From: Microthrixaceae bacterium
GTDB lineage: Bacteria > Actinomycetota > Acidimicrobiia > Acidimicrobiales > Microtrichaceae
Length of the DNA: 64,000 bases
Reading direction: 5' to 3'
Assembly: GCA_019694615.1 (NCBI GenBank)
Contig: JAIBBP010000264.1
Coordinates: 958 to 64,957 of the forward strand
Part shown: positions 24,525 through 57,425 of the stretch, in pieces
Numbering within the stretch: the first letter of the stretch is position 1
Layout: every line of letters begins with the position of its first letter
Program-made: the position numbers and the translations under genes
The notes under the pieces: model-generated
Databases searched by the model: none
What the model was told of the DNA's origin: nothing
What the model saw: the letters and a program-made list of their open reading frames with translations, nothing else

Positions 24525-24682
24525 GGGTCACCTCCTGGGTCGATGCCTCGTCGGCATCCTCGGGAGGGAGCGCTAGGTCGAACAGCGAGAGTTGTTCGGA
24601 GGGATTGCTGCGAGCGCTCCGAGCGCGTGCCATCACGCTACCCCCACCATCTCGCGGCCACCGAGCACCGACGGTGCCCGCA

Positions 24683-26838: not shown

Positions 26839-26844
26839 ACCCAC

Positions 26845-42536: not shown

Positions 42537-42542
42537 GGGGGC

Positions 42543-42752
42543 TCAGCCGCCGGGCTGCTCGGGTGTCGGGATGTTGTCGGCGTTGCCCTTCGCGGCGTTG
42601 TAGATGATGCCGAGCACGACGATGGCCGCGCCGACGAGGAGGAAGGTGATGACGGCGACCTCGGTGGTCGTCATCCCTCGTTCGTCGTGCGGGTCGATGC
42701 CGAGCCTCGCGCAGCAGTAGGCGAAGAGGATTCTGGGGTCGGGTACGGGCAT
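42543..42752 (-). CDS. flp: Flp-type prepilin
   Basis: 69 aa with leader ...HDERG followed by MTTTEVAVITFLLVGAAIVVLGII (Gly cleavage site, Glu at +5, hydrophobic helix). Confidence 0.7.
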   Translation of the reverse strand: MPVPDPRILFAYCCARLGIDPHDERGMTTTEVAVITFLLVGAAIVVLGIIYNAAKGNADNIPTPEQPGG

Positions 42753-42777
42753 GGTGGCCTCCTTGTGTTGGCTCCGT

Positions 42778-43689
42778 TCAGGGCTGGGGTCCGCTGACCG
42801 AGGTGATCTGGACGACTGCCGGGTAGGCGATGAACACGAGGAACCCGAACAGCAAGACGGCCACCGGGACCGTCATGCGCTCGGTGGCCGCTTCCGCGGC
42901 TGCTTCGGTTTCGGCCACTTGGTGACCTCGGAGGGTGTCGGCCTTCGCGGCGAGGGAGGCCCGAATGCGTGCGCCGTGGGATCCGGCGAGCGACACGCTG
43001 GCGGCGAGTTCGGCGAGTTCGTTGATGCCGAGGCGCGCGTCGAGCTGGGCGAACGTGTCCCATGGAGACTGGCCGGTGAGCCGGGCGCGTCGCAGCTCCG
43101 CGCGGATGGTCTGGTAGCCCCAACCATCCCCGGCGTCCGCGGCGGCGTGCAGCGCTGTCTCGATGCCCGCTCCTCCGGCGAGCAGCACGTTCACGAGGTC
43201 CAGGTAGGAGGACAGGGTGTGGCGGAAGGCTCGCCTGCGCTTGTCGGCTTCGTCACGCAGCAACATGTCAGGCAGGAGGAACCCGGCGACGGCGGTGACC
43301 AGGGAGAAGATGGCGATGAGTCCGAGGGGAGCAGGGATCCCCATGACCACCAGGGCAGCGGCGGCGAGGTTGGGGACGAGGAGTCCGGCGACGGCTCCGA
43401 GGAGCTTGTCGAACGCGTGCCGTTCCGGTGTGCGCCCGACCAGCTCGAGTTCTTGGTGGTGGCGTTCGGTGTCGTAGCCGAGCGATTCGACCAGGCGTCG
43501 TGCCGTGCTGCCGATCCGGTCGAACTCGTCGCGCGTTGTCGGTGCCGCCGTGTCGATGGCGATGCCAGGCCGAGCGAGTCCGGCGAGGACCGCGTCGATG
43601 CTCGGAGGCCGGGGGGCGAGCGCTCGCCACGTGAGCAACACGCCGAGCCCGACACCGGCGCCGAGCAGGACCATGACCACGGCCGTCAT
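42778..43689 (-). CDS. tadC: Tad platform protein TadC (T2SS-F family)
   Basis: Polytopic protein with T2SSF-like helices. Overlaps tadB. Confidence 0.8.
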   Translation of the reverse strand: MTAVVMVLLGAGVGLGVLLTWRALAPRPPSIDAVLAGLARPGIAIDTAAPTTRDEFDRIGSTARRLVESLGYDTERHHQELELVGRTPERHAFDKLLGAVAGLLVPNLAAAALVVMGIPAPLGLIAIFSLVTAVAGFLLPDMLLRDEADKRRRAFRHTLSSYLDLVNVLLAGGAGIETALHAAADAGDGWGYQTIRAELRRARLTGQSPWDTFAQLDARLGINELAELAASVSLAGSHGARIRASLAAKADTLRGHQVAETEAAAEAATERMTVPVAVLLFGFLVFIAYPAVVQITSVSGPQP

Positions 43690-44549
43690 GTCTCTGCTCC
43701 GATGCTGGTGGGCCCTCCGGCCCGTGCGGTGAACCGTTCGGGCAGCTCGATGTCGGCCATGCGGGTGAGGAGCCAGCCGCCGGCAGCGAAGATGCCACCG
43801 ACGATCGCCAGCATGACTTGGCCGCCAGCGCTGTCGTAGACGGTGAGGTAGTCGCGGTTGGCGATGGCGAGGAACACCACGGCGGCGATGACGACGCCGA
43901 CGATCACCTTCGTCGCGGTGCGGACGCGAGTCCGACCGACCTCCACTCGGATGCGCATCCGTGCGTCTCCTCGGGTGGCCTCGGCGAGGCGGGACAGAAG
44001 CCCGGAGAGATCAGCGGCTTCCATGCGGGATGCGATCACGAGGGCCGCGACGACAAGGTCGCCGGAGGGGTGGTCGAGATCCTCGCCGAAGGCGACGAGT
44101 GCCTCGGGGAGTCGTTCGTGGTCGAGGCGTCTCACCATCGTGCGTACCTCGCTGGAGATCGGTGGTGGCGCGACAGGGGCGGTGGCGACGATCGCCTCTT
44201 CGAGGCCGGACGCGGCGACGATCGAGTCGCGGATCATCTCGGTCCACGAGGCGATGGCCTCGGTGCGGTCGATGGCCTGCTGTCGAGCGGCCTTGCCGCC
44301 GAGGATTCCAGGCAGGACGAGGACGGCTACGGCGGCCAGGATCCCGCCGACGAGCCACCCGGTCGCGGCCATCGCCAGAAGCGCCGCCACGGCCGCAACC
44401 GTGACCTTCGGCAGAAGCGAGCTGGAGCGCACGCGCTGGACATAGCTCGACGGTGCGTCGAAGAGTCGGCGACCGGTGAGGCCAGCGAGGACCAAGAGCA
44501 GCCCCAGGGCTACGCCTGCGGCGAGGGCTGCGAAGACGAGTGTGCTCAT
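43686..44549 (-). CDS. tadB: Tad platform protein TadB (T2SS-F family)
   Basis: Start trimmed to MSTLVFAAL (ATGA overlap with the tadA stop). T2SSF-like topology. Confidence 0.8.
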   Translation of the reverse strand: MSTLVFAALAAGVALGLLLVLAGLTGRRLFDAPSSYVQRVRSSSLLPKVTVAAVAALLAMAATGWLVGGILAAVAVLVLPGILGGKAARQQAIDRTEAIASWTEMIRDSIVAASGLEEAIVATAPVAPPPISSEVRTMVRRLDHERLPEALVAFGEDLDHPSGDLVVAALVIASRMEAADLSGLLSRLAEATRGDARMRIRVEVGRTRVRTATKVIVGVVIAAVVFLAIANRDYLTVYDSAGGQVMLAIVGGIFAAGGWLLTRMADIELPERFTARAGGPTSIGAET

Positions 44550-45898
44550 CGCCACCACCCCTGCGCGGCGGCGTGGGCGGTCGCGTCGAAGCCGTGCACC
44601 TCGAGCTGCGCGGCGAACTCCGGTGTGGGCGGCGCGGCCGGGACACCCGATCCGGATGCGTCTGGTCGCCACAGTTCGTTGGAGACGACCTGGCCACCCT
44701 CGACGGCGCCGACGACCTGACGCACGCTGGTCACGCGGCGCTCGCCGTTGACCCAACCGAGGTGCACGATCAGATCGACGGCGTTCGCTACCAGCAGGTT
44801 GGTGACATCGGGGACCAGTCGCTCGGGGGTCATGGCCGCATACATGGCGAGGCGTCCGAACACGCCCTTGGATGAGTCAGCGTGGATCGAACACATCGAT
44901 CCGTCGTTGCCCTGGCTCATGGCGAGGAGCATCGGGAGGACCTCGGCGCCGCGAACCTCGCCGACGATGACCCGTTGCGGGTCCATGCGCAGCGCCGAGC
45001 GGACGAGCTCGGCGAGGCTGAAGGACCCGACGCCTTCGGTGTTGGCTTCACGGGCTTCGAGCGTCTCGTGGTCGGGGTGGAGGTCCTCGAAGCGCTCGAG
45101 TCCGATCTCCAAGGAGTCCTCGACTGTGATGAGGCGCTCGTCGGCTGGGATCTCGTTGATCAGGCACCGCAAGGTCGTGGTCTTCCCGGTGCCGGTTCCG
45201 CCGGCCACGATGATGTTGGCCCGAGCCCGCACCGCAGCAGACAGGAAGCTGGCCGTCAGGTCGTCGCACACGCCGAGCTCGACGAGTTGGGACACGCGGT
45301 GGATGTCGAAGTCGTGGCGGCGGATCGTCACCGTCGGGCGACCCGACACCGCCATGAGGGCATGAAGGCGATCACCGTTCGGGAGCTGCAGGTTCAGCTC
45401 CGGGTGCGCGTGATCCCAGCGACGCTCGCTGCGACCGATGCGCCGCGCCGCGGTGGAGATCAGCTCGACGAGATCCTCGTCGGAGTCCGCCACGGCGGGC
45501 CCGCGGACCTTCGTGCCGTCGCGCAGGTTGAGCCAGACCCGCAGCGCGCCCGAGATGTGGATGTCCCGGATGTCTGGGTCGTCGAGCAGTGGTTGGAGGC
45601 GGGCGAGCCCGTGGATGCGGTCCAGGACAGCCGCGGTGACCTTCGCTTCGGTGGCCTCGTCGAGAGGCACGCGCCCGTCCGAGTACGCGGACGCTGCCAA
45701 CTTGCGAAGTTCGTCGGTCACCAACTTGCGAGCCAGCGCACGTTCATCGGCTGGAGAGAACCGCCCCCGCCCAGCCTCCTCGTGCGCCACATGGGCCGTG
45801 GTCAGTGCCTCGCCAACGCGGTGGTGCAGGTCGGCAACCAGCGCAGGATCGATCCCGTCGCGCTGCCACGCCCCCGAGCCGTTCAGTGCCGTGGTCAT
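44546..45898 (-). CDS. tadA: Tad secretion ATPase TadA/CpaF
   Basis: Walker A GGTGTGKTT, Asp box ERLITVEDSLE, Walker B VIVGEVRG, His box. Confidence 0.95.
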   Translation of the reverse strand: MTTALNGSGAWQRDGIDPALVADLHHRVGEALTTAHVAHEEAGRGRFSPADERALARKLVTDELRKLAASAYSDGRVPLDEATEAKVTAAVLDRIHGLARLQPLLDDPDIRDIHISGALRVWLNLRDGTKVRGPAVADSDEDLVELISTAARRIGRSERRWDHAHPELNLQLPNGDRLHALMAVSGRPTVTIRRHDFDIHRVSQLVELGVCDDLTASFLSAAVRARANIIVAGGTGTGKTTTLRCLINEIPADERLITVEDSLEIGLERFEDLHPDHETLEAREANTEGVGSFSLAELVRSALRMDPQRVIVGEVRGAEVLPMLLAMSQGNDGSMCSIHADSSKGVFGRLAMYAAMTPERLVPDVTNLLVANAVDLIVHLGWVNGERRVTSVRQVVGAVEGGQVVSNELWRPDASGSGVPAAPPTPEFAAQLEVHGFDATAHAAAQGWWR

Positions 45899-46605
45899 GA
45901 CGCCGCCACCGCTGTCGTCGGCTCAAGCAGCACCGAACTCAGCGCAACTCCGAGGGCACCCACCGCACGAGCGAGCTGTGAACGGGCCAGATGGGAGCGA
46001 GAGCCGCCCACCCGCAGCACCTCGGCGGCATCGGGGTCGTTGGGCAGCTGACCGATCACCGAAACCCCAACGGCCCGCTCGACATCTTCCACCCCGTAGG
46101 GGCCGTCGCCGACGAGCACGACGGCCACCCGACCCCGGACCGCCTGGCGCAGTGTCGGCACGAGATGGGTCAACGCGACGAGCTGATCGGCGACCGGGTT
46201 CACGAACACCGCCAGGAGATCGGAGGCGGCGACGATCGGTACCGGTGAGCGGAGACGTCCAGCGTCTACGATCGCGACTCCGTCAGCCGCAACGAGCTTG
46301 TGAGTGATCCGCTCTCCCGCGGTCCGCCACACCGACGTGCTCGCAGCGGGGGCATCGGGACCCACCAGCACGGGGACGCCACCGGCATCCTGCGCGTGTG
46401 CTCGCCAACCGCCGTCAGCGTCGGGCCCGTCGGCCGCGAACGTCGTCAGGCCAGGTTCACGGCCGAGCCCGTATCGCACCGCGAGAACCCCGCCGTCGAG
46501 GTCAGCCTCGACCACCAGGGCATCGGTGAAGGTCGACGCGAGCAGGATCGCGGTGGTCGTCACACCGGGTGCGCCCCGGACCGAAGCCAAGCTGATGACC
46601 TTCAT
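45895..46605 (-). CDS. TadZ/CpaE-like degenerate ParA/MinD-fold protein
   Basis: N-terminal VISLASVRGAPGVTTTA replaces a canonical deviant Walker A. Position and operon coupling match TadZ. Confidence 0.55.
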   Translation of the reverse strand: MKVISLASVRGAPGVTTTAILLASTFTDALVVEADLDGGVLAVRYGLGREPGLTTFAADGPDADGGWRAHAQDAGGVPVLVGPDAPAASTSVWRTAGERITHKLVAADGVAIVDAGRLRSPVPIVAASDLLAVFVNPVADQLVALTHLVPTLRQAVRGRVAVVLVGDGPYGVEDVERAVGVSVIGQLPNDPDAAEVLRVGGSRSHLARSQLARAVGALGVALSSVLLEPTTAVAAS

Positions 46606-47273
46606 GGCGAGACCAGCACCAACCTCAGCCCACCAGCACTCGCCGCGGCCGCGACCGCCTCAGCGTCAGCCTCGGTTGCGAGTACCGACACCAAGAGCCG
46701 GTCACTGGCCAGCTCATCGACGGCGAACACGGTCGCATCTCGGGCGATGACCGCAGGATCCGCCTCGAGCTCGGCGACGTCGGCCGAGCGAACGACGTTG
46801 ACCCGATCGCCCGGGGCCAGGCCACGTGCCGGGTACGCACCAGGGTCGAGCGAGAGGCCGACCACGCCGTCGCCGTCCTGGACCGTTGCAGCATCGGCGA
46901 TCACCGAGGTCGTGAGGAGCGTGCCCTCGGCCAGGTCGACCAGCGCCACGCGACCCACCACTCGGTCGAGCTGGGAGCCGTCGAGCCGAGCCAACGCATC
47001 GTCGCTCGACACGTACGCCACCTTCACGTCGTTCGCGTCGATCACCTCGCCCCGCTCAACGCTCGACACCAAGACCAATGCAGGAACCTTCTCGACAGCG
47101 CTCAAGTGCCAGAGCACCGCGCCCAGCGCGAACACGGCCATGACCAACACGCCGACGACAAGCTCAGGCACTCGCACTCGCCTACCGGGCGGGCGAACGT
47201 CAACGCTGCGCCGAGCACCTTGGCCGTTGGACGACGGCGCATCGGGCCGAGTCGCGGTTCGAGGAGCGGCCAC
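46602..47273 (-). CDS. CpaB/RcpC-like SAF-domain pilus assembly protein
   Basis: N-terminal TM anchor followed by a SAF-like block VLVSSVERGEVIDANDVKVAYV. Confidence 0.65.
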   Translation of the reverse strand: MAAPRTATRPDAPSSNGQGARRSVDVRPPGRRVRVPELVVGVLVMAVFALGAVLWHLSAVEKVPALVLVSSVERGEVIDANDVKVAYVSSDDALARLDGSQLDRVVGRVALVDLAEGTLLTTSVIADAATVQDGDGVVGLSLDPGAYPARGLAPGDRVNVVRSADVAELEADPAVIARDATVFAVDELASDRLLVSVLATEADAEAVAAAASAGGLRLVLVSP

Positions 47274-47275
47274 TG

Positions 47276-48151
47276 CTACCGGCCTCCCCGCGTCCCGATC
47301 GCTTGGATCTCACCGACCTCGACATCGAGCGTCGACGAGCGCGTGATCGCCGGGAGCGCGCCGCCACCGGCGGCGTTCGACGTCCACGACACCTCGAGCG
47401 TCACCGTCGCCTCCAGGTTGAAGGTGCCACCCGGCCGCGTCGCTGACGAGCTGCGGTAGGTGTGGGTGCAAGACGACGCGCCCTCCGACGAGCCAGGTCG
47501 CCACGGGGTGCCCGGACCGCGACACGACACCGACCCGCCGTCGCCGAGTTCCCAAGTCGTAGCGACCGGTGTCGCTCGCACCGTGGACCAAACACGACCG
47601 GTGTTGGCTGTCGCTTCGTAGGTCTGCCACCACGTCGAGTCCAGCCACAGCCAGGTCGGCACCTGGACGTACAGGCGCCCGTTCTCCGACGGGCTCGTGC
47701 GGATCGCCGGTGGCGCGATCTGAACCGAGGCGAGCGCGTCGAGCGCGAGCTGGTGGGGATCGACCAACCCACCTTCGGGGATGAGGAAGAAGCCGTCGAC
47801 CGCTACGGCTCCGACTCCGGGGCACCACCGTTCCAACCATCGGCCGGTCGCCGAGTGTTGGGTCTCAAGTGTGTCGACGTCGTAGATGCCGAACTCGAAG
47901 TCATCTTCGATCACCACGTGCCACTCGCAGGGGTCCTCTGAGCCCGATCCGCCACCGCCCGACCCTCCGCCACCACCAGACCCGCCTTCCTCGGCGACTG
48001 CGGTCGGATCTCCGTCAGGGTCGACAAACGCGCCACCGTCGCCGTCCGGTCGTTCGCCGGCTCCGGCCTGACCCGCCGAGACGACCACGATTGAGAGCGC
48101 TGTGAGTAGCGCGACTACGAGGCGTGTGCGCATCCCGCGACTCCTTCCCAC
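47276..48151 (-). CDS. secreted hypothetical protein of the Tad operon
   Basis: Signal peptide LVVALLTALSIVVVSAGQAGA, a Gly/Ser linker and a Cys-containing beta-rich domain. Confidence 0.5.
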   Translation of the reverse strand: MGRSRGMRTRLVVALLTALSIVVVSAGQAGAGERPDGDGGAFVDPDGDPTAVAEEGGSGGGGGSGGGGSGSEDPCEWHVVIEDDFEFGIYDVDTLETQHSATGRWLERWCPGVGAVAVDGFFLIPEGGLVDPHQLALDALASVQIAPPAIRTSPSENGRLYVQVPTWLWLDSTWWQTYEATANTGRVWSTVRATPVATTWELGDGGSVSCRGPGTPWRPGSSEGASSCTHTYRSSSATRPGGTFNLEATVTLEVSWTSNAAGGGALPAITRSSTLDVEVGEIQAIGTRGGR

Positions 48152-48783
48152 TGTTGAATGAGGCGGGCAGAGGACACTCGCCAGGCACCGTCGACGTGCT
48201 GCAGCTCTCCTCTGATGTTCTGTGTGTAGACCTCGCCGTCAACGACCTCGCCTGTGTTCCGGCGGTAGATCACCCCGTCCGTGACAACGCACTCCTGCAC
48301 CACGGCGTGATCGCCTTCCAGATCGATGACGTCGACGCGCTGGATGTCGCTCGGGTTCGCCGCAGGCCGGAACGCGAGACCGTTCTCGAGGTTGCTGCGT
48401 GTCTCCGCGATCACCGCGTCCAATTGGGCACCAGTGGCGAAGTCCCGGAGCGCTGGGTCATCCGGGTTTGGGGTGCCACTGTTGGCGGCGAAGCGAGCGT
48501 CCCAGTAGCCGATATAGCGGGCGACGATCTCTTCTTCGGCGGTCTGGCCGTTCGGCGTCGACGCCGAGGTGGTGGAAGCGGTCGACTCGGGGGTCGATGT
48601 CGAGCTCGTCGTGTCGGTGGTGGTCGACGATCCCCTCGGCTCGGTCGTACTGGTCGAGGTTGTCGCTGCGTCGTCGGAGCATCCGACCACGCCGAGACCG
48701 ATGAGGATGGCGAGCGCGATCGTCCAGCCGCTGACATGCCGCCGGTGTGCTGCTGCTCGATCGATCCGATCGGACCTGACCAT
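48115..48783 (-). CDS. lipoprotein of the Tad operon
   Basis: Lipobox LGVVGC after a TM-like leader, followed by a Ser/Thr-rich linker. Start trimmed to MVRSD. Confidence 0.55.
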   Translation of the reverse strand: MVRSDRIDRAAAHRRHVSGWTIALAILIGLGVVGCSDDAATTSTSTTEPRGSSTTTDTTSSTSTPESTASTTSASTPNGQTAEEEIVARYIGYWDARFAANSGTPNPDDPALRDFATGAQLDAVIAETRSNLENGLAFRPAANPSDIQRVDVIDLEGDHAVVQECVVTDGVIYRRNTGEVVDGEVYTQNIRGELQHVDGAWRVSSARLIQQWEGVAGCAHAS

Positions 48784-49037
48784 GGTCACGCCTCCTCGTT
48801 CGGGACGACCCCCTTCCGGCATCGCTGAGTTGGGCACCCAGCGAATCCCGCAGTTCCACGTCGGCGCGACGATCGCACTGCGAGTCAGGTGGAGGAGGTC
48901 AGCCCCGTAACGGTCGGGCAGACGAGACCGGGCATCGACGAGTCGATGTCGCACACAACGGTAGCGAGCCTGTGTCGATCTTGCTCGACGAGCACGGGCA
49001 ACGCGCGGGAGTGACAGCGGCCGCATGGCGGGTCGGT

Positions 49038-49715
49038 TCAGCTCGCTAGGGGGAGTTCACGGAGGCGAGCCTCGGCGCGCCACCGGCGATGCCACAGCAC
49101 TTTGAGCGACACCTGCTGCTCGGCGGCGAGCTCGGCCATGGACTCTCCACCAACCCGGCTGCGCAGGATCGTCGCGAGGACCTCGTCGGATATCCCCGAC
49201 GAGGAGCTTGCGGTGGCGAGCTCTTCGAGGAAGGCGTGGCTGACGAACTGCTCCTCTGCGGAGGGCGCCTCTGTCGCCACACACGATCCGATCTGGCGCC
49301 TAGCCTTGTCCTGCTCGCGGCGGTAGCGCTTGCGGACGTCGAGCAGGACGTTGGCCGACACCGATCCGGGTCGGCTCGCGGGGTAGGTGCGGATGCGTTC
49401 CCATGCGAGCCTGACGATGTCGTCGATCGCGTCGTCGTCGCGCCCGACACGGTGGGCAAGGTTGCACAGACCGCCGAGCAGTCCTTGGAGCAGAGTTCGG
49501 GCCGCGAGATGATCAGCGGGCGCCAAGGCTGCGAGTGCCCGTCGGACCGCTGGCCCATCGTCGGGGTTGAAGCCGAGGTCGATCACGTCGTCGAGGTCTG
49601 CGGCTGACGTGAGCACTGGGTGGGTAGCCGACCAGCGCATCAGCGCTCGCCTTGCGGATGGAGAGCCGGCGATCGCCGACCACTCCCTGTTGAGGGATCG
49701 CAGGATCTCTGCCAT
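49038..49715 (-). CDS. sigma-70-family-like (ECF-like) factor
   Basis: AGGAGG 6 nt before the ATG. Region-2-like IVRLAWERIRTY and region-4 HTH ESMAELAAEQQVSLKVLWHRRWRAEARLREL. Confidence 0.55.
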   Translation of the reverse strand: MAEILRSLNREWSAIAGSPSARRALMRWSATHPVLTSAADLDDVIDLGFNPDDGPAVRRALAALAPADHLAARTLLQGLLGGLCNLAHRVGRDDDAIDDIVRLAWERIRTYPASRPGSVSANVLLDVRKRYRREQDKARRQIGSCVATEAPSAEEQFVSHAFLEELATASSSSGISDEVLATILRSRVGGESMAELAAEQQVSLKVLWHRRWRAEARLRELPLAS

Positions 49716-49760
49716 CGGAAGCCTCCTGGTGTCGTTGAGCACCAGCAGGGTCCGCGTGGC

Positions 49761-49855
49761 ACCTCCCGTGCGACCTCCCGTTCGACCTCCCGTTTCGAAG
49801 ATTTCTGGTCGGTTGCCTCCCGTCCGAGGGGTCCGGCCTCCCGTTCGACCTCCCG
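49761..49855 (+). repeat. iteron cluster 1: six copies of (A/G)CCTCCCG, mostly 12-bp phased
   Basis: Copies start at 49761, 49773, 49785, 49815, 49836 and 49848. Longer consensus CGACCTCCCGTT. Intergenic, between the sigma-like gene and 49917. Confidence 0.8.
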
Positions 49856-49895
49856 TCCACGGGATTTCGCTGCTGCCAACGCGCGCTATCGACCC

Positions 49896-49910
49896 CGCCG
49901 AGGGGCCTAC
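49896..49910 (+). promoter_or_regulatory. conserved motif CGCCGAGGGGCCTAC-N6-ATG (instance C)
   Basis: Ends 6 nt before the ATG at 49917. Confidence 0.45.
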
Positions 49911-49916
49911 GGGGGC

Positions 49917-50462
49917 ATGGAACGTGATCGGATACTGAGGTTCACCCCCGTCGACCACCCCGACGACCGGGTGCAACGTGTCGGCTTCGATCTGACCGAC
50001 CCCTACGTCGAGCAGTGCTGGTCGGCTGTCGTCGGGCCGAGCTCGACCTTGCTGCTCCGTCGGATGCCGGACCTGTGGGCCGTCAACTCGCCCCGCGAGA
50101 TCCAGGCCACTGAGCTGTCTCGTTCGCTCGGCCTCGGTCGCGGTGTGGGCGAGCGCAGCCGCCTCATGAGCACCATGAATCGGCTCGTCCAGTACCGGCT
50201 TGCCCGGCCAGCTCCGGACGGCGCCGGGCTGGAGGTCTTCCGCCAGGTCTCACCACTCACCCCCCATCAGCTCGACCGGGTGCCGCAGTTGACCCGCGAC
50301 ACCCACGAACGGCTCTTCGGCACCCACCTCGAGCAGATCGACGACCTGGCCCAGCACCAGGCGAGCGTCGCGTCGATCACGGCTCGTCTCGACCGCATCC
50401 AGAACAGTTCCGGCCGACCAACCAACGGGCTCGCGCCTCAGGGCAAGGCGCTCGGGCGATGA
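49917..50462 (+). CDS. hypothetical DNA-binding-like protein, paralog of 18424-18879
   Basis: Shares blocks with the 18424 protein. First gene of the relaxase operon, directly downstream of the iterons. Confidence 0.6.
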   Translation: MERDRILRFTPVDHPDDRVQRVGFDLTDPYVEQCWSAVVGPSSTLLLRRMPDLWAVNSPREIQATELSRSLGLGRGVGERSRLMSTMNRLVQYRLARPAPDGAGLEVFRQVSPLTPHQLDRVPQLTRDTHERLFGTHLEQIDDLAQHQASVASITARLDRIQNSSGRPTNGLAPQGKALGR

Positions 50463-50552
50463 GCTTCACTCGCCGGAACGGCTCTCCCGGAACACCCGTC
50501 GGCCCGGTCCCGTTCATCGGTGCCGAACAGCAGATCCGGCGCGCACACATTT

Positions 50553-50577
50553 GCAGGTTTCCCTCCGGGAAACCTGC
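50553..50577. promoter_or_regulatory. oriT candidate hairpin GCAGGTTTCCC-TCC-GGGAAACCTGC
   Basis: Perfect 11-bp inverted repeat 25 nt upstream of the relaxase GTG, followed by iteron-like GTCTCCCG at 50581-50588. Confidence 0.5.
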
Positions 50578-50601
50578 TGCGTCTCCCGTTGGCGGTCTCC
50601 G

Positions 50602-53600
50602 GTGAAGTTCACGGTCACTCCGCTGGGCGGAGGCCGGGGGGACGCTGCGCGTGTGGTGGACGCGATCGTGCGCTACCTCCAGCCGCCTCCGAAGGCCGCC
50701 CCGTCGAGCAGCACTCCAGCGCCGGACGCTGGTGGTCCCGAGCGGTACTACGCGGATCGCGGGGAGGAGCCGGGGCGGTGGCTCGGTCGCGCTGCTCACG
50801 GTGCCGGGCTCACGGGGGCGGTGCTGCGGCCGGACTTCGCATCGGTTCTGGCTGGTCGGGACCCTTACACCGACGAACGGCTCATCACTGCCCAGGGCTC
50901 TGCGGGGCGGCGACCGACGTTGGGTTCGGGCGCCCACACCAAGGTCGGAGCCGATGGGGAGCAGCTCTATGACGTGGCCGACGCTGCTGCGGCCCTCGGG
51001 TTGTCGCACCGGGAGGTCGAGCGGATGCTCGACGTCGGCACGGCGGTCGCTCTCGGCACCTTTACACAGGCCGTGGGTGTCCAAGCCACGCCGGGAGACG
51101 AGGCAGGACCTCCCGCGCGACCTCCCGACGCGTCTCCCGAATCGGTGGGACCTCCCGTTCCACCTCCCGCGCGACCTCCCGTTTGGTCTCCCGTTGGCGC
51201 TGTGACCAGGCAGTTCTGGCAGCCGGGAGGTTCCTACCTCGTGCCCTTGGTCGAAGGTGACGGGTCGCGGTGGGTGCGGGCCGGCGAGCTGGCCCGTTGC
51301 GCCCATGCCCGCGACGCGGGAATCGACCCCGGGGACATCCGATCGCTGGGAGCACCCGACGACCAGCTGAGCCTGGCCGAAGCCGCCCGGCTGGTCGGCC
51401 TCACCAAGCAGTACCTGCGCGGCCTCGCCCGCTACCACGAGAACTACCAGGTGGAGATCGAGCGATCCCTCGCGGCCGGGCGGCACCCGCGCCGGGCGTT
51501 CCTGGTCGCTCACCGTGGCACCAAGGGCCGGTGGTTGGTCACCCGTGAACACCTGGCCGAGTTCGTGGAACGGCGCCGCCCTCCGGCGGTGCGAGTCGGC
51601 TACGACCTGACCTTGACCACAGAGAAGTCCCTCGGCGTGCTCGCGCTCCTCGGCGACGCGACGACCCGTTCCGCGGTGCTGGGGTCGATCCAGGCCGGGA
51701 ACGACTGGGCGCTCGGCTGGCTCGAAGATCACGCCGCGGTCGGCCGGGTCGACGGCAAGCCAGTGACCGGTGAGGGGTGGATGGTGGCGTCCTTCCGGCA
51801 CCTCACCTCCCGCGCGCTCGACCCGTTCCCGCACCATCACAACGTGATCGCCAACACCGTCCGCCTCTCCGACGGCACCAACCGGGCGCTCGACGCCCGT
51901 GCCCTGTATCGCCACGCTCAGGCCGCCTCCGCGCTCGCGACCGCCGAGATGCGCCACCAGCTCACCAACGACCTCGGCGTGAGGTGGCGTCCGGGCCGCA
52001 AGTCCGGTTGGGAGATCGAGGGCATCACCAACCAAGTGGTCGGCGAATTCTCCAAGCGCCGCAACGAGATCGACGACGCCCTACGGGAGCTCGAAGAAGA
52101 GATCGGTCGAGGCGCGCATCCTGGCGAGGTCGAGCACATCGTGCTGCGAACGCGCCCGGCCAAGAACCACACGCCCGCGGATGACTTGATCGCTTCGTGG
52201 CGTGACCGCGCCGCCCGCCACGGCCTCACCCCCGACACGCTCGCCGACCTCTCCGGGCACGACACCCAGGCCCAGGCGGTTGATGAGGCGGCGTTGTTCG
52301 AGTCGCTCGCCGGGGCAGAGGGAATCTGCTCGGGTGGATCGGTCTTCTCGCGGTCCGAGGCACTCGTCGCCATGGCGAACCATCCCGTGCCTGGCGCCGA
52401 TGGCGAACAGGCGCAGCCGCTGCTGTGTGGCGCGTCTCGATTGATCGAGCTGACCGATCAGTTCCTCGCGTCGGAGCAGGTGGTCGCGCTCACCGACGCC
52501 GACGAACCGCTCTACACGACCGTGGAGATGCTCGGCGTGCAGGACCGCATCGCGGCCCGCTTCACCAAGGGACTTCATCGGGGCGCGCACCTCGTCCCCG
52601 ATGGCCACGTCGAGGCCGCGCTCGAACGGCACGCGCACCTCACCGGCGAACAGCGGCGGCTTGTCACGGAGTGGTGCCAACGCGGGCATCGCTTCCAAGC
52701 CGCCATCGGACGCGCCGGGGCTGGCAAGACCACAACCGTCGCCGCGTGCGCGGATGCGTGGACTGCCGCCGGCTACCGGGTCCTCGGTGCAGCCGTGAAG
52801 GGCGAAGCGACGCGGACCCTGGCCGCGGCGACCGGGATCGACTGCGAGACCGTCGCTTGGTATCTCGTCCACACCGATCCCCAGTCGTTGCCGCTGGACT
52901 CGCGGACGATCCTCGTCGTCGACGAAGCCTCCACGCTGTCGGACCGTGACCTCGACACCTTGATGGAGATGGCCGCGACCACCGGGGCGAGCCTCCGGCT
53001 GATCGGCGACCCAGCCCAGCACGGTGCCATCGCTGCGGGGGGCATGTTCCGCGTCCTTTGCGAGCGCCACGAACGCGACACCCCCGAGTTGGTGACCACC
53101 CACCGGCTCCAAGACCCCCACGACCGTGCGGCGGCCCAGGCACTGCGCGAGGGTCGGATCGACGAAGCGTTCGACCAGCTCGCTGCGGCCGGTCACCTCC
53201 ACATCGTCGCCGACGACCTCGCCATGTACCGCGAGGTGCTCGGCCGCTGGTGGGACGCCCACCGCGACGGGCTCGAGCATCCGATGGTCGACCGGCGCAA
53301 CAGCACCCGCCGCCAGCTCAACCGTCTCGCCCACCTCCTCCGACGCGTGAACGGCGAACTCGACGGCGACGAGATCACCGCCAGCGGAGACCGACACTTC
53401 GCCGTCGGCGACCGGATCACCGCCCGCGCCCCCAACCGCGACCTCCACGTCGACGGCGACCGGCACGCGTATGTCCGCAATGGTGCGCTCGGCACGATCG
53501 TCGCCGTGCGCCCCGACCGACGTGACCCAGCCGACGACACGCTGACCGTCGACTTCGACGGCATCGGCACGATCGACATCCCGAGGTCGTTCTTCGATCA

Positions 53601-53952
53601 TCACCGCACCCCCGCTGGTCGACCCGAGGTCGGTATCGACCACGCCTACGCCCTCACCTCCTACGCGGTGCAGGGTTCGACCCGCGACGTGTCCACCAGC
53701 CGCGTCGACGCGACCGCCACCCGCTCGGAGACCTACGTCGACATCACCCGCGGACGCCACGCCAACCACCTCTACCTCACCGCCTCGGTCGACCCCCTCG
53801 ACGGCGAAGCCCTCCCACGCGTCCCAGCCGCACCCGCAGACCTCGCCGTCGCCGAACGCCTCCAACGCTCCACCGGCGAACTCACCGCCTGGGAACTTGC
53901 CCACCCCGCCGACCAAGCGCAGTCCGTGGCAGACCAAGCCGTCGGAATCTGA
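50602..53952 (+). CDS. MOBF-type relaxase/helicase (TrwC/TraA-like)
   Basis: N-terminal TrwC-like block (ERYYADRGEEPGRWLG...LAGRDP), His triad FPHHHNVIAN, Walker A GRAGAGKTT, Walker B LVVDEASTL, C-terminal UvrD-like YALTSYAVQGST. Confidence 0.9.
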   Translation: MKFTVTPLGGGRGDAARVVDAIVRYLQPPPKAAPSSSTPAPDAGGPERYYADRGEEPGRWLGRAAHGAGLTGAVLRPDFASVLAGRDPYTDERLITAQGSAGRRPTLGSGAHTKVGADGEQLYDVADAAAALGLSHREVERMLDVGTAVALGTFTQAVGVQATPGDEAGPPARPPDASPESVGPPVPPPARPPVWSPVGAVTRQFWQPGGSYLVPLVEGDGSRWVRAGELARCAHARDAGIDPGDIRSLGAPDDQLSLAEAARLVGLTKQYLRGLARYHENYQVEIERSLAAGRHPRRAFLVAHRGTKGRWLVTREHLAEFVERRRPPAVRVGYDLTLTTEKSLGVLALLGDATTRSAVLGSIQAGNDWALGWLEDHAAVGRVDGKPVTGEGWMVASFRHLTSRALDPFPHHHNVIANTVRLSDGTNRALDARALYRHAQAASALATAEMRHQLTNDLGVRWRPGRKSGWEIEGITNQVVGEFSKRRNEIDDALRELEEEIGRGAHPGEVEHIVLRTRPAKNHTPADDLIASWRDRAARHGLTPDTLADLSGHDTQAQAVDEAALFESLAGAEGICSGGSVFSRSEALVAMANHPVPGADGEQAQPLLCGASRLIELTDQFLASEQVVALTDADEPLYTTVEMLGVQDRIAARFTKGLHRGAHLVPDGHVEAALERHAHLTGEQRRLVTEWCQRGHRFQAAIGRAGAGKTTTVAACADAWTAAGYRVLGAAVKGEATRTLAAATGIDCETVAWYLVHTDPQSLPLDSRTILVVDEASTLSDRDLDTLMEMAATTGASLRLIGDPAQHGAIAAGGMFRVLCERHERDTPELVTTHRLQDPHDRAAAQALREGRIDEAFDQLAAAGHLHIVADDLAMYREVLGRWWDAHRDGLEHPMVDRRNSTRRQLNRLAHLLRRVNGELDGDEITASGDRHFAVGDRITARAPNRDLHVDGDRHAYVRNGALGTIVAVRPDRRDPADDTLTVDFDGIGTIDIPRSFFDHHRTPAGRPEVGIDHAYALTSYAVQGSTRDVSTSRVDATATRSETYVDITRGRHANHLYLTASVDPLDGEALPRVPAAPADLAVAERLQRSTGELTAWELAHPADQAQSVADQAVGI
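51108..51193 (+). repeat. iteron cluster 2: seven copies of (A/G)(C/T)CTCCCG inside the relaxase ORF
   Basis: Copies start at 51108, 51120, 51132, 51150, 51162, 51174 and 51186. In frame, the stretch encodes GPPARPPDASPESVGPPVPPPARPPVWSPV. Confidence 0.8.
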
Positions 53953-54025: not shown

Positions 54026-54235
54026 ATGTCCACCACCGAGACCGACGCCCCGGCAGAAGTCCTCACCATCGACGAAGCCGCAGCCATCCTGCGCATCAGC
54101 CGCAACGCCGCCTACGCCGCGGCCCGCGAGTGGCGAGCCACCGGCGGAAAGGTGGGTATCCCCTGCATCGAGATCGGCCGCACCCTCCGAGTCCCCCGCG
54201 CCGAGTTCGAACGGCTCCTTGGCCGCCCGGCGTGA
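54026..54235 (+). CDS. excisionase-family / MerR-like HTH DNA-binding protein
   Basis: 69 aa. LTIDEAAAILRISRNAAYAAAR ... IPCIEIGRTLRVPR is the excisionase-type HTH pattern. GAGGAGG SD upstream. Confidence 0.7.
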   Translation: MSTTETDAPAEVLTIDEAAAILRISRNAAYAAAREWRATGGKVGIPCIEIGRTLRVPRAEFERLLGRPA

Positions 54236-54289: not shown

Positions 54290-55042
54290 TCAGTTGAGCT
54301 GAACCACTAGCTCGCCTACCGCGAGCAAGTCGGATCGCTCGACATCCGACACCGCCGATCGGCTGTCCATACGAAGCCACCGAAACGAGCGATCGACTTC
54401 ATCAACGAAGTACCGTTTGCACATCGTCGCGGTGCTCGAGACGAGGATCCGTGGAGCGGTCCTTCTCAGTTCGGCAGCAATGGAGGCGGCACCGAATGCC
54501 CCGACAATGCGGACCACGTCGTAGATGTCGCCGCTGCGCTTGTCTGGTCGCGAGTCACGGCGGCCCTCGACCGAATGAAGCTTCATTGCGACGATGGCAG
54601 TCGGAGTTGCGACTGGGACTGTCACCTCAACCAGCGTCTCTCGAGAACTCGAGCTCACGACGCGCAGCAGACGGTTGACAGCCGTCTCGAGCGCGAACGA
54701 GTGAGCGAGGTACGCACCGCTGTGCGGGTCCCCACCGGACACGTCAATGATGTCCACGTCGACGAACGTCGAGCCCGATGCGATCGTGACTCCATTCCTC
54801 GACTGCTGCGCACCTTGCTCGACAAGGAGCTCCAGCGCACTGTCAGCGTCAATCGACACTGTGTCGAGATCGCCAGTTGGCCGGTGGAACCCGTTGAGGT
54901 TCACGGCTACAGACACACCACCGACGAGTGCCCATGTGGGCAATCTGGCTGGAAGCGCTCCTAGAGCTGAGAGGGCCTTGACGGCGAAGGCGTCCGGTGT
55001 GGTGGCGACGAAGACGACCGCCGCCCTGTCAACGCCAGACAT
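54290..55042 (-). CDS. AbiEii/AbiGii-like nucleotidyltransferase (toxin-type)
   Basis: N-terminal ALVGGVSVAVNLNGFHRPTGDLDTV (GG ... R-x-T-x-D-x-D) NTase motif. Overlaps the upstream gene by 14 nt. Confidence 0.6.
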   Translation of the reverse strand: MSGVDRAAVVFVATTPDAFAVKALSALGALPARLPTWALVGGVSVAVNLNGFHRPTGDLDTVSIDADSALELLVEQGAQQSRNGVTIASGSTFVDVDIIDVSGGDPHSGAYLAHSFALETAVNRLLRVVSSSSRETLVEVTVPVATPTAIVAMKLHSVEGRRDSRPDKRSGDIYDVVRIVGAFGAASIAAELRRTAPRILVSSTATMCKRYFVDEVDRSFRWLRMDSRSAVSDVERSDLLAVGELVVQLN

Positions 55043-57425
55043 CGCGGTATCCGACGAGTTGGGCCGGAAATTCTGGGTATTCCGGAGGCTCCGATTCGGG
55101 TTCATGGGCCTTGGCGTCGGCGCCCTGTCGTTGTCGCCATGCTGTCTCGGTTCTCGCTTCACTTACGAACAACGCGGCAAGTTCGAGGCTCCCGTCGCGG
55201 AGTGCCGGCCACGCTCCCATGGCCAGATAGCCCTCAAGCGCATTGCCCTCGTCTCCGGCTACCCGTCGAAGCCCCTGGAAGACACGACGGAGTTCAGCGG
55301 CCATGTCACTGCTCGCGAGCATCCGGACGAGCGGAAGAGTGCTGTCACCACCAGAGTGGAACATCATTCGCCGGTCACGCCGACGTTGTTTCCTGTCGCC
55401 AGCGTCGTCTTCGGCGCCGACCCATCTCAGCCATGCGCTGGTTGCCTCCTTCAGCGCGGTTCGCCGGAACTCACCGTCTGCCTCGTCAGCGACCTCGAGC
55501 AGGCCGCGGATGCCGCCGGGCTCAGGCCCGCCCAGCAGGCTGGGCCCCGGTTGTTCGACGGCAGCTCGGGCGGCTACCAAGGCCTGGTCGAGCAGGACTT
55601 CGCGTCTGCGTGCATCGCCGTAGCGGCTCGCGACCGCTAGAACCTTGGCCCTCACGTGAAGGTCGGCGACAGCAGGCGCGGATTGCTCGATGCCGGCCAG
55701 CGCTCGTTCGAGCGCGTCGCCATCCAAGACGGGGAGGAGCTCGGCTATCGGCATGGCTCGGCCGTCGATGTCGGCGGTCAGCAATTCGTTCAGGAGCCTT
55801 CGGCGATCCGCCGGCGAGTTGTCAACGCTCGATCGTGCCCGGGAGCAGAATTCGTACCACCACGGGTCGTCGCCGGAAGACCACTCCGACCACCGACGCG
55901 TGCCCTCATGGTGCCAGACCGGCTTCGGCCGGCGAACGACCTCTTCGAGATGCGCCCTGACGGGTCCCTCGTACACGGCGATCGGATCGAGCCTGAGCAG
56001 GTAGTGCGCCTCTCCAGCTGTCGCCCAAGCGTCCCGCTCGGGCTCGTCTGTCTCCAGCCATTCCTGCGCGATGTCCCGAAGGACCGATCGAGGTGCCCCC
56101 GAACGAACCGCTTCCTCGACAGCGCTACGCAGACCGGAGTCTGGCGGGTCAATGTCGCGAGACCGGACCGGTTCCTCCAGGAGGAGACTTGGGGCGTAGT
56201 CGACAAGACGACGGAGTCCCCACCGTCCCCGAGACTCCATGGCGCCGATGACGTCGAGGAGTCGCCGTCGCACTGTGACGCGTAGGTCATCCGGGCAGCC
56301 TGGGTGCTGATAGAGCACGGCAAGGCCCTCGGCATGCGAGTCCCAGCAGGCCGCCGCTGCAGCGCGCCACAACGGCTCTGGCGTTGCATCGGTAAGAATG
56401 TCCTCGAGCCAGTTCGCCTGAACCCAACCCGCACGTCGATAGACCTCCAGTACCGCGAGCGTTCCCAGCTCCGTGCTCGCAGGGCGCCAGACTTCGACCG
56501 TTTCACGGCCACGTTGATCCTCGGCGAGATCGAGCGCCACGACGACCGGGTGAGCGAACCGCACACCCGACACAGGGTTGGTGATCACGACGCTCTCGAA
56601 GTTCGACTCAACACGGACGGCGACTTGACTGCTATCGGGGTCGAGAGCGCCCGCCTTGCGGGATTTGGAAAGCCGCCGGAGCAAGGCCTCGGACCCGACA
56701 ATCAGGTTGATCGGTCCACCCGCACCAAGGAGGACCGGCGCACCCAGTGCCTCAGCAGCGCCATTGCCCGTTGCCACGGCAACGCCGTCGAGTCTCAGAT
56801 CCTCCAGCGCGTCATCGACCTGCATCCACTCGCCAGGCCACGCATCCGCGAGAGCCCAGAACAGCTCGGGAAGGAGAGGCTTCCCATCGGCCCGAAGCAG
56901 TCCATCCTCCTCGAGACCAGCGAGAATCGTGGAGACATACCCTGCTGAGCGGTCGACGCTTCGGGCCAGAGCGCGAGGCGAACCCGACTCATCTGGCCTC
57001 AAGAGGAGGCCGAGTACCACGTCGCGCACGGCAGGAGTGAACGAGCGTGGCGCGCGCCTGTCGGGCAAGCCGTAGCCCGGATTGAACGAGACATCCAGTC
57101 TCAGTCGCTCGGTCCAGATCCGTACGCTTCCGCGCCGATCCAGCCAACCGATCCCGAGCGAACGGAGCGCAGCGCGTGCCGCGTCGCTGAGGCGATCAGA
57201 AACGACGACCGCTATCTCCCCTTTGTCGACTGGATCGAGTGCTGCCAGCTCTGCGGGGGTCGGGTGCGCTCGGTTCACCAACCTCACATCGATGGATTCC
57301 CCGTCCACCACGAGACGCCGCGGACCAAGGACCGTCGTAGGGATGCCTGACTCTGTCAGGGCGTCAGCCAGCTCCTCGAGCGAGGCGTTTGGCGATTGGG
57401 ACGGCACAGACACTGATGGTACCAC
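55029..57425 (-). CDS. 798-aa protein with an internal AbiEi-like antitoxin region and a long helical C-terminal extension
   Basis: wHTH-like SPRALARSVDRSAGYVSTILAGLEEDGLL followed by ...FAHPVVVALDLAEDQRGRE, resembling AbiEi. About 470 further residues have no recognisable motif. Confidence 0.5.
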   Translation of the reverse strand: MVPSVSVPSQSPNASLEELADALTESGIPTTVLGPRRLVVDGESIDVRLVNRAHPTPAELAALDPVDKGEIAVVVSDRLSDAARAALRSLGIGWLDRRGSVRIWTERLRLDVSFNPGYGLPDRRAPRSFTPAVRDVVLGLLLRPDESGSPRALARSVDRSAGYVSTILAGLEEDGLLRADGKPLLPELFWALADAWPGEWMQVDDALEDLRLDGVAVATGNGAAEALGAPVLLGAGGPINLIVGSEALLRRLSKSRKAGALDPDSSQVAVRVESNFESVVITNPVSGVRFAHPVVVALDLAEDQRGRETVEVWRPASTELGTLAVLEVYRRAGWVQANWLEDILTDATPEPLWRAAAAACWDSHAEGLAVLYQHPGCPDDLRVTVRRRLLDVIGAMESRGRWGLRRLVDYAPSLLLEEPVRSRDIDPPDSGLRSAVEEAVRSGAPRSVLRDIAQEWLETDEPERDAWATAGEAHYLLRLDPIAVYEGPVRAHLEEVVRRPKPVWHHEGTRRWSEWSSGDDPWWYEFCSRARSSVDNSPADRRRLLNELLTADIDGRAMPIAELLPVLDGDALERALAGIEQSAPAVADLHVRAKVLAVASRYGDARRREVLLDQALVAARAAVEQPGPSLLGGPEPGGIRGLLEVADEADGEFRRTALKEATSAWLRWVGAEDDAGDRKQRRRDRRMMFHSGGDSTLPLVRMLASSDMAAELRRVFQGLRRVAGDEGNALEGYLAMGAWPALRDGSLELAALFVSEARTETAWRQRQGADAKAHEPESEPPEYPEFPAQLVGYRDVWR

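Follow-up and report, generated by a model that had tools for sequence, protein, structure and literature searches.

Phased direct repeats recur at three sites around the predicted oriT of an integrative conjugative element from a Microthrixaceae bacterium

Background

In plasmid R388, the stbS site comprises two sets of five 9-bp repeats with an 11-bp cycle, more repeats occur at other promoters, and StbA acts as a repressor, controls conjugation and positions the plasmid, all without an NTPase (bioRxiv 10.1101/2022.04.29.490116). In the tubC/TubR system, seven 12-bp repeats in two sets are bound by a filament of a winged helix-turn-helix (wHTH) protein (bioRxiv 10.1101/2022.04.29.490116). 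Here we describe 12-bp direct repeats in 64,000 nucleotides of DNA from a Microthrixaceae bacterium (GenBank assembly GCA_019694615.1, contig JAIBBP010000264.1, positions 958 to 64,957 of the forward strand). This whole stretch, called the window below and numbered from its first letter, carries an integrative conjugative element (ICE). Six repeat units (array 1) lie between an extracytoplasmic function (ECF) sigma-like gene and the divergent gene of a 181-amino-acid protein, one unit adjoins the hairpin of a predicted origin of transfer (oriT), and seven units (array 2) lie inside the open reading frame (ORF) of a MOBF relaxase. Array 1 had been noticed in an earlier sequence-only reading, which overlooked array 2. 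Our comparisons of related loci revealed that the repeated word differs between lineages and switches together at these sites.

The closest likeness is to the StbA/stbS and stbDR system of R388 (IncW, MOBF), in which two sets of short repeats also lie beside a MOBF oriT and upstream of a small wHTH gene, and in which the one repeat turns up at several points of the element. However, the R388 repeats of 9 bp with a 2-bp spacer give an 11-bp cycle on one face of the helix, whereas the cycle in the ICE is 12 bp, and StbA is PadR-like, whereas the 181-amino-acid protein showed no detectable sequence or fold match to StbA. In addition, the ICE differs from R388 in that an array is overprinted on the relaxase ORF, a unit touches the nic hairpin, and the host belongs to the Acidimicrobiia and the element to the Tad-pilus ICEs. 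Array 2, with its 3 + 4 units of 12 bp, resembles the tubC site of the pBtoxis TubR/tubC system (type III partition). Unlike in that system, no TubZ or other tubulin-like GTPase was found among the window proteins scanned (32 proteins, a subset of the ORFs), no sequence or fold match to TubR was found, and the ICE arrays are associated with oriT and a sigma promoter.

ParR binds cooperatively, and in doing so both represses its operon and forms a higher-order complex. The arrangement of the parC sites of R1, pB171 and pSK41 (type II partition), where two clusters of 10-11-bp iterons flank a promoter, is also similar to that of the ICE (in part from bioRxiv 10.1101/2022.04.29.490116). However, ParR is a ribbon-helix-helix protein with a ParM partner, and neither was found in the ICE. 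Relaxosome accessory proteins of the TrwA, TraM and TraY type bind repeated sites near nic and autoregulate, and the TraM sites are spaced by 12 bp. As with TrwA of R388 (sba), TraM of F (sbmA-C) and TraY, the small gene of the ICE lies by oriT and upstream of the relaxase gene, binding and autoregulation by its 181-amino-acid product being proposals only. In contrast to these ribbon-helix-helix tetramers, which have few sites within about 200 bp, the ICE has a predicted winged helix and arrays of 6-7 units up to 0.8 kb from the hairpin. Functional repeats in or beside the gene of a DNA-processing protein are known from the RepA_N origins, which lie inside repA, and from the Streptomyces clt/TRS 8-bp repeats that are read by TraB. 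Those are replication origins or loading sites of FtsK-like double-stranded DNA translocases, whereas the protein here is an HUH relaxase of an ICE with a type IV secretion system (T4SS).

The ICE shares with stbS, tubC and parC short repeats of the same orientation at about one helical turn, in two clusters, in the promoter region by the gene of a predicted small DNA-binding protein. The tests applied did not identify the 181-amino-acid protein as a homologue of StbA, TubR or ParR, and the likeness would be one of functional analogy and not of family membership. We know of no close precedent for a twin array on a relaxase linker, for a unit that touches the nic hairpin, or for such clean specificity classes.

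Results

Two phased arrays and a single unit

The sequence-only reading had reported six same-orientation repeats in a divergent intergenic region of about 200 bp. All six, starting at 49761, 49773, 49785, 49815, 49836 and 49848, were recovered on the plus strand, and the divergent gap measured 201 bp (49716-49916), from the minus-strand ATG at 49715 to the plus-strand ATG at 49917. Array 1 consists of six (A/G)CCTCCCGT units at 49761-49859 with a 12-bp phase and a 3 + 1 + 2 layout. Its words are ACCTCCCGT or GCCTCCCGT, always on the plus strand, and it ends 58 bp upstream of the winged-helix gene (49917). Tandem Repeats Finder returned a period of 12 with 95% matches at 49761-49794.

49761 to 49796, plus strand: cluster 1a, three contiguous 12-bp units (ACCTCCCGTGCG, ACCTCCCGTTCG and ACCTCCCGTTTC), TCCCG cores invariant in a 15-locus alignment
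49800 to 49806, no strand assigned: A+T-rich element GATTTCT between the unit clusters, recurring in most repeat classes
49815 to 49826, plus strand: isolated unit 4 (GCCTCCCGTCCG), less conserved than the remaining units of array 1
49836 to 49859, plus strand: cluster 1b, two contiguous units (GCCTCCCGTTCG and ACCTCCCGTCCA)

Array 2 comprises seven units at 51108-51197 inside the relaxase ORF, arranged as three units, a 6-bp gap and four units with the same 12-bp period.

50602 to 53952, plus strand: MOBF (TrwC-type) relaxase-helicase of 1116 amino acids with a GTG start, matching TrwC and NF041492 MobF
51108 to 51143, plus strand: cluster 2a, three units (ACCTCCCGCGCG, ACCTCCCGACGC and GTCTCCCGAATC), codons 170-181 (50602 = codon 1)
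51150 to 51197, plus strand: cluster 2b, four units (ACCTCCCGTTCC, ACCTCCCGCGCG, ACCTCCCGTTTG and GTCTCCCGTTGG)

Read in frame, the units have the form xxT-CCC-Gxx-xxx and encode GPPARPPDASPESVGPPVPPPARPPVWSPVG. The third codon position is T in all 7 units, compared with 7.4% in ICE genes, and the array also uses the rare codons GGA, CGA and GTT. Array 2 lies in an insertion of about 190 amino acids (50902-51600 of the window, residues ~105-330) that splits the TrwC relaxase domain and is present in all relatives. This insertion contains two motifs of the HTH_17/excisionase type, LGLSHREVERML and LVGLTKQYLRGLARY, with a linker between them that array 2 encodes; it also has a conserved PGGSYLVP...DGSRWV module.

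Words that resemble an inverted unit, (A/C)CCTCCCGG on the minus strand, occur at 51008-51016 and 51222-51230 and flank array 2 at about 100 and 25 bp. They fall in the codons for HREV (in the helix of the first HTH motif) and for PGGS, the latter with the rare glycine codons GGA and GGT; they could be extra sites or a coincidence. At L017:8279-8325, in a class B locus of the comparison below, four more 12-bp units (GTCCCGTTCGGTAGCCCGCTGGGTGGCCCGTTCGGTAGCCCGTT) are found on the minus strand, inverted, at about codon 530 of the relaxase gene.

The single unit lies beside the predicted oriT hairpin. The sequence-only reading had listed degenerate copies at 50482-50489 and 50581-50588; both exist, and the second turned out to be a full unit.

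50485 to 50512, plus strand: two degenerate unit cores TCCCG (50485-50489 and 50508-50512), only partly conserved
50528 to 50577, minus strand: oriT core, a perfect hairpin GCAGGTTTCCC-TCC-GGGAAACCTGC (50553-50577) with a near-invariant flank (50528-50552)
50581 to 50592, plus strand: single full unit GTCTCCCGTTGG, three bases from the hairpin 50553-50577, conserved in relatives

The hairpin-adjacent unit is identical to the last unit of array 2. The degenerate cores, which sit just past the stop codon of the small gene (50460-50462), are weak sites at most.

The copies of the repeat are clustered and phased far beyond chance. The word RCCTCCCGT occurs 8 times in 64 kb compared with 2.79 +/- 1.68 in shuffled sequences, and all 8 copies fall within two clusters. 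The phased pair TCCCG-N7-TCCCG likewise occurs 8 times, against an expectation of 0.68; none of 100 shuffles reached 8, and all 8 pairs fall within the same two clusters. The 7-mer CCTCCCG as such is not enriched in the 64 kb (23 copies, 27.5 expected), and 11 of its 14 plus-strand copies are inside the two clusters, which are also the two highest peaks of the lag-12 autocorrelation across the whole window. The sequence-only reading would have been contradicted by an 8-mer that is common at a similar density elsewhere; in the 64-kb window, the copies are instead concentrated in the two clusters.

Conservation and co-variation of the repeat word

The comparison covered 28 loci from genomes, 64 from metagenomes and the plasmid NZ_CP050949 of Iamia sp. 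SCSIO 61187, all of which encode relatives of the 181-amino-acid protein; single loci are designated by L numbers. The metagenome loci, in which automatic detection of the sigma-like start was unreliable, were inspected by eye. Alignment of 15 intergenic regions showed the TCCCG cores of units 1-3 and 5-6 to be invariant or almost invariant, with drift in the intervening bases, and array 1 of L001 differs by exactly one additional 12-bp unit. Invariant cores with free spacers across the 15 loci support a selected array of the protein-binding type, in agreement with the sequence-only reading. Array 2 was found at an offset of +1194 to +1272 from the small gene in L002 and L004; in L005, L009, L013, L014 and L016, the offset is the same to within about 30 bp. 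The codon phase of array 2 was identical throughout. In L031 and L032, the small protein is identical to that of the window, as is the array-1 sequence shown, and the array-2 spacers differ and encode different amino acids, with all of the cores kept. The repeat cores and their positions are conserved down to about 45% protein identity.

In more divergent loci, the word itself changes. When the commonest 6-mer of each relaxase linker was counted blind, 11 of 14 loci had it 2-6 times within 160 bp upstream of the sigma-like gene (background, 0.03-0.15 per 160 bp), and 11 of 14 had it once in the 32 bp between the hairpin and the relaxase start. In 11 of 14 loci, the core of the repeat particular to the locus stands just past the hairpin, for example CACAATC in L021, GGTCGTG in L063, L065, L067 and L078, and TCCCGG in L073 and L077. 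The flank of the hairpin (50528-50552) is conserved in all loci regardless of the repeat class. The following classes were distinguished.

Class A: CCTCCCG, the window and close relatives, linker peptide GPPARPP
Class A2 / B: nnTCCCGYT, L013, L016 and L025 (A2) and L015, L017, L019 and L026 (B), linker peptide GHPV
Class C: TCACAAT, L021, linker peptide HNLG
Class D: TCGGATACGACG, L023, linker peptide SDTT
Class E: GGTCGTG / ATCGTGC, L020, L033, L063, L065, L067, L070 and L078, linker peptide DRAR
Class F: TCCCGG, L073, L077 and L081

In L021, TCACAAT occurs five times in the linker and once past the hairpin, and CACAATC-like copies lie upstream. In L023, the relaxase linker and the region upstream of the sigma-like gene both carry TCGGATACGACG, and the unit next to the hairpin fails to match. 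The class E loci have 3-4 linker units, and their post-hairpin and promoter units are the same word where the contig reaches, except past the hairpin in L033 and L071. The class F linker of L077 contains 10 units. Thus, at least five repeat classes switch together at the sites. Such co-variation of three sites with the repeat word is the signature of a sequence-specific DNA-binding protein that would be co-evolving with its sites. Since the classes encode unrelated linker peptides and rare codons are used in array 2, it is the DNA word that is under selection, and the linker merely tolerates it.

Insertions of the IS3 family have struck the module independently in L033 (NZ_CP050949.1, the Iamia plasmid, 18143-22159) and at L005:4613-5838. 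In L033, such insertions truncate the small gene and also adjoin the BTAD gene, and in L005 an IS3 replaces the sigma-like gene.

The predicted nic region

On the minus strand, the hairpin is followed by AAATGTGT/GCGCGCC (slash, nic), which forms a putative nic region. The substrate of TrwC from R388 is a hairpin followed by TATTGTCT/A, with the substrate sequence GCGCACCGAAAGGTGCGTATTGTCT/ATAG (PMC4814116), and the base 3' of nic is a purine as a rule (PMC4176350). The ICE region has the components of a MOBF oriT, namely an inverted repeat, about 8-9 nt, a TGTnT/R-like putative nic, and an adjoining MOBF relaxase gene. We favour the minus strand as the strand that would be nicked because it is similar to the R388 TrwC substrate and agrees with the purine rule. 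With a nick on this strand, the class-specific unit would lie distal to the hairpin, the relaxase gene would be transferred last, and there would be one array on each side of nic.

The sigma-like gene and its leader

Array 1 is linked to the sigma-like gene by the comparison of class B loci and lies next to a structured leader of this gene.

49038 to 49715, minus strand: ECF-sigma-like gene of 225 amino acids, the first gene of the Tad-pilus operon, AlphaFold2 (AF2) model with a predicted local distance difference test (pLDDT) score of 80
49718 to 49757, minus strand: conserved stem-loop in the 5' leader of the sigma-like gene, abutting cluster 1a, with compensatory changes across >15 loci

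The label sigma-like, which had been given on the letters of the gene, was confirmed by fold: the top 20 fold matches of the AF2 model in the PDB are all sigma factors, 18 of them of the ECF type (SigE, SigH, SigL, SigK and AlgU), and NCBIfam returned a weak sigma match. In the class B loci L015, L017, L019 and L026, inserted cargo of 0.7-1.1 kb separates the divergent genes. The sigma-like gene has kept cluster 1a, the A+T-rich element and two inverted units at its side in these loci, while the small gene retains a short conserved leader only, with no units in front of it, at 0.7-1.1 kb from array 1. Because the array stays with the sigma-like gene despite the cargo, we regard array 1 as primarily the control region of the sigma-like/Tad operon.

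The leader stem-loop pairs the anti-Shine-Dalgarno (anti-SD) segment CCUGCUGGUG with the Shine-Dalgarno (SD) segment CACCAGGAGG of the sigma-like gene, whose AGGAGG lies on the minus strand just upstream of the ATG at 49715. Compensatory changes in the stem include GGTG/CACC, GTGTC/GACAC and CGTG/CACG, and single-sequence folds of six divergent loci gave minimum free energies of -16 to -22 kcal/mol with z scores of -2.7 to -4.8. RNAalifold found no consensus structure on the MAFFT alignment of the leader, in which the arms were probably misaligned. The stem-loop could regulate how the ICE sigma factor is translated or could serve as a palindromic operator. At L002:5771-5830, the SD-hairpin segment upstream of the sigma-like gene is tandemly duplicated, with two copies of cctggtgtcgttgagcaccaggagggtcc.

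Variants of the A+T-rich element across the classes are gatttct, gattctt, gaaatct and agaaatc; the element is not evident in the Iamia plasmid (L033) or in L023. GATTTCT at 49800-49806 may be a core-promoter element of the sigma-like/Tad promoter. A second GATTTC is present at 49864-49869, directly after cluster 1b and 64 bp from the central GATTTCT; thus, each unit cluster is trailed by the same A+T-rich word, the second copy being kept in the closest relatives only.

Candidate binders of the repeat

The sequence-only reading had named two paralogous small proteins, encoded at 49917 and 18424, as the obvious candidate binders. The first of these is the best candidate, with a winged helix in its AF2 model, while the second has no array nearby.

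49917 to 50462, plus strand: gene of the 181-amino-acid winged-helix protein, the proposed unit binder

The AF2 model of the 181-amino-acid protein (pLDDT 86) shows an N-terminal strand, a winged helix and a 40-residue C-terminal helix (124-163). Its best fold matches are the DnaD-like N-terminal domain of primosome DnaB (probability 0.96, E = 0.018, TM 0.40) followed by MarR regulators, and a profile search of the PDB returned only a marginal MarR match (E = 0.5). No family was found for it in Pfam, NCBIfam or PHROG, and a fold search of BFVD yielded nothing useful. The protein belongs to a superfamily of 2016 clusters at 50% identity, which is without annotation. This family of elements is abundant: the exact protein is indexed in 472 blocks of an assembly collection, and the contigs read from it include activated-sludge metagenomes. 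In the remote relatives P0340 and P0387, the shared winged-helix domain is the N-terminal module of Prim-Pol (PF09250) proteins, a fusion that suits a DNA-targeting role of the domain. From these predictions and the co-variation above, the 181-amino-acid protein, with its gene between the repeat sites, is most likely the unit binder.

The paralogue at 18424-18879 (plus strand) is 28% identical; its gene directly follows a TetR gene, at what appears to be the left edge of the ICE.

Other proteins of the element fare worse as binders, and the HTH_17 and BTAD proteins were rejected. The 69-amino-acid HTH_17 (Xis-like) protein has the same recognition helix, LRISRNAAYAAAR, in the CCTCCCG and TCGGATACGACG classes and nearly the same one in the TCGTG class. 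The BTAD (SARP-like) protein of 1027 amino acids has a BTAD domain at its C terminus only and contains no wHTH or other DNA-binding domain. The sigma-like protein is an ECF sigma by fold, and its region-4 helix is not the same in classes A and B despite their common TCCCG core; it is an unlikely reader of the units and would more plausibly read the invariant A+T-rich element.

Discussion

On balance, we consider it somewhat probable from the comparison of related loci that array 1 belongs to three sets of sites that co-evolve and are bound by a sequence-specific DNA-binding protein of the ICE, with a role as an operator and in organising the relaxosome. Among the three functions that the sequence-only reading had offered for array 1, the operator of the divergent promoters and the oriT accessory region fit best, and the replication origin is not supported. 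In the proposed mechanism, copies of the 181-amino-acid protein would bind head-to-tail every 12 bp, aided by the long C-terminal helix, and would form a nucleoprotein filament. On array 1 (49761-49859), this filament would cover the region that controls the ECF-sigma-like gene, the first of the Tad-pilus/conjugation operon, and the array would act as an operator, probably a repressing one, with its two repeat clusters flanking the promoter-like A+T-rich element as in parC and stbS. The hairpin-adjacent unit and array 2, about 530 bp away, would place sites on both sides of the putative nic, where the same protein might serve as a positioning factor or relaxosome accessory that organises, bridges or marks oriT, in the manner of StbA, TrwA and TraM near MOBF oriTs.

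Several results weigh against this proposal. A scan of the region for sigma-70 promoters and terminators returned zero matches, and no promoter was located. Autoregulation of the small gene by array 1 is not general because the class B small genes have no units upstream. The similarity of the 181-amino-acid model to solved structures is weak at the values given above, and TubR, ParR and StbA were not among the Foldseek matches of the model. A repeat array was searched for near the 18424 paralogue and was not found. In addition, the loci were fetched through the small protein, and its co-occurrence with the arrays is therefore partly by construction. In favour of the 181-amino-acid protein, the residue at position 85 of its putative recognition helix is S, T or N in every TCCCG-class locus examined and R or H in the non-TCCCG loci examined, a suggestive tracking of the repeat class that is confounded by phylogeny, as the non-TCCCG loci are also the most divergent.

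Among the alternatives, the arrays might form a centromere-like or positioning site of a StbA-like system without an NTPase, acting on excised ICE or plasmid forms, with promoter control as a secondary effect. We consider this unlikely as the primary function, although it is compatible with the proposed operator and relaxosome role and the two are not mutually exclusive. The layout is that of stbS, in that two sets of short direct repeats adjoin a MOBF oriT and precede a small wHTH gene. StbA works without a plasmid NTPase, and the module is also present on the 77-kb Iamia plasmid. However, that plasmid persists although IS3 truncates its small gene, array 1 tracks the sigma-like gene and not the small gene, and neither ParA, ParM nor TubZ was found among the scanned window proteins. 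The truncated small gene of the maintained Iamia plasmid also speaks against a vegetative replication origin, in which the arrays would be iterons and the 181-amino-acid protein would initiate, possibly with the Toprim protein or host factors. The fold match to DnaB and the fusion of the same winged-helix domain to Prim-Pol replicase domains in distant relatives would suit such an origin; many ICEs replicate after excision, and iterons embedded in ORFs are known for RepA_N plasmids. Yet the units of 12 bp, with a conserved core of 7-9 bp, differ from the usual iterons of about 17-22 bp, which are mostly phased at about two helical turns, and the lowest GC content in any 60-bp window is 0.60-0.63, which leaves no A+T-rich unwinding region. 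No DnaA box was found within 1.7 kb of array 1 when one mismatch was allowed (the nearest match, at 51613, lies some 0.4 kb beyond the downstream end of array 2, and the 6 matches in the whole window are at chance level, 7.5 being expected), and no Rep domain was found by Pfam, NCBIfam or PHROGs among the proteins scanned. Moreover, the relaxase and oriT could already provide rolling-circle replication, and array 1 is tied to a promoter and a leader hairpin. The origin suggested by the sequence-only reading was thus not borne out, and we regard it as quite improbable.

Equally improbable in our judgement is that the relaxase reads the units through its two HTH_17-like motifs, with the arrays as docking sites for autoregulation and oriT specificity. 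A unit directly abuts the hairpin that the relaxase must recognise, array 2 lies in the linker between the two HTH motifs, and proteins of the HTH_17/Xis type typically bind phased direct repeats, as do lambda Xis, P2 Cox and 186 Apl. However, the first HTH motif is near-identical in L021 (TRSEVVRML, repeat TCACAAT) and L033 (TRSEVGRML, repeat TCGTGC), the second varies within the CCTCCCG class, and a 120-kDa protein is hard to fit on seven sites at 12-bp spacing; binding by these motifs is possible and less likely than binding by the 181-amino-acid protein. We give each of the remaining two explanations hardly any credence. In one of them, the units would act at the RNA level, with CCUCCC as an anti-SD mimic in the plus-strand leader or GGGAGG as SD-like decoys in the leader of the sigma-like gene. 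Read on the minus strand, the repeat is ACGGGAGGU and thereby SD-like, and a genuine SD-sequestering hairpin adjoins the array. However, the words of other lineages at the same places (TCACAAT, GGTCGTG and TCGGATACGACG) resemble neither SD nor anti-SD sequences, the same units recur inside an ORF and at oriT, and the start region of the small gene, ggcctacgNgggcATG, varies without matching changes in the repeat. We removed the anti-SD reading because most of the alternative words are not SD-like. The other is neutral replication slippage, or the coding of a proline-rich peptide, without a function at the DNA level. The tandem units are short and their number differs by one in L001, but conservation of the cores and of their positions extends down to about 45% protein identity, the words at the three sites vary together, and the coding array has rare codons and unrelated peptides in different classes. 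Slippage is refuted by these comparative data.

A further, more tentative possibility that goes beyond the operator and relaxosome role is that each lineage has a private address code, in which one DNA word with its own winged-helix reader is written at the sigma promoter, at the edge of the nic hairpin and in the relaxase linker. If this were true, filaments on both arrays would bridge oriT and couple the expression of transfer genes to relaxosome assembly, and related elements in one cell would be mutually blind, with exclusive regulation and mobilisation. A switch of the code would force a new tetrapeptide repeat into the relaxase linker, a clear natural case in which DNA-binding specificity would dictate protein sequence. 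If the operator and relaxosome model holds, the relaxase linker would be a striking case of a regulatory DNA array overprinted on coding sequence. The unannotated superfamily of about 2000 clusters would then gain a function as a repeat-reading, DNA-targeting domain, and the repeat classes would offer a natural set of matched protein and site specificities for studying switches in DNA recognition. An oriT and a control region would also be defined for T4SS/Tad-type ICEs of the Acidimicrobiia, on which we know of no experimental work and none was found in the literature searched. The arrays are practical markers for locating oriT and for predicting cross-talk between co-resident elements.

Other genes of the element

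The remaining genes that place the arrays in an ICE are as follows.

25003 to 26844: type IV coupling protein
29721 to 30785: Toprim protein
30789 to 32093: VirB4-like ATPase
36164 to 37300: cell-wall hydrolase
38253 to 49715, minus strand: Tad-pilus operon (TadE, T2SSF, T2SSE and SAF; the last gene encodes the BTAD/LysM protein)
54026 to 54235: 69-amino-acid HTH_17 protein
about 54290 to 55162: AbiE genes (AbiEii, a weak Pfam match, read from the near-identical locus L029)
58639 to 59868: tyrosine integrase

The Tad/Flp-type operon is complete, with two TadE genes, a 69-amino-acid Flp-like gene, T2SSF, T2SSE/CpaF, a SAF/CpaB-like gene and the protein with a C-terminal BTAD and LysM. It is headed by its own ECF-like sigma in an ICE that also has a type IV coupling protein, a VirB4-like ATPase and a MOBF relaxase, which suggests that a Tad pilus is used for mating in the Acidimicrobiia.

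The element also carries defence and anti-defence cargo, consisting of a 1909-amino-acid methyltransferase and SNF2/ResIII helicase protein (19129-24858), for which no exact database record was found, a Shedu (SduA_C) gene (27843-29108) and the AbiE toxin-antitoxin pair (54290-55162). The cargo beside the relaxase differs between otherwise near-identical copies of the element, as seen in L029 and L030 compared with L031 and L032.

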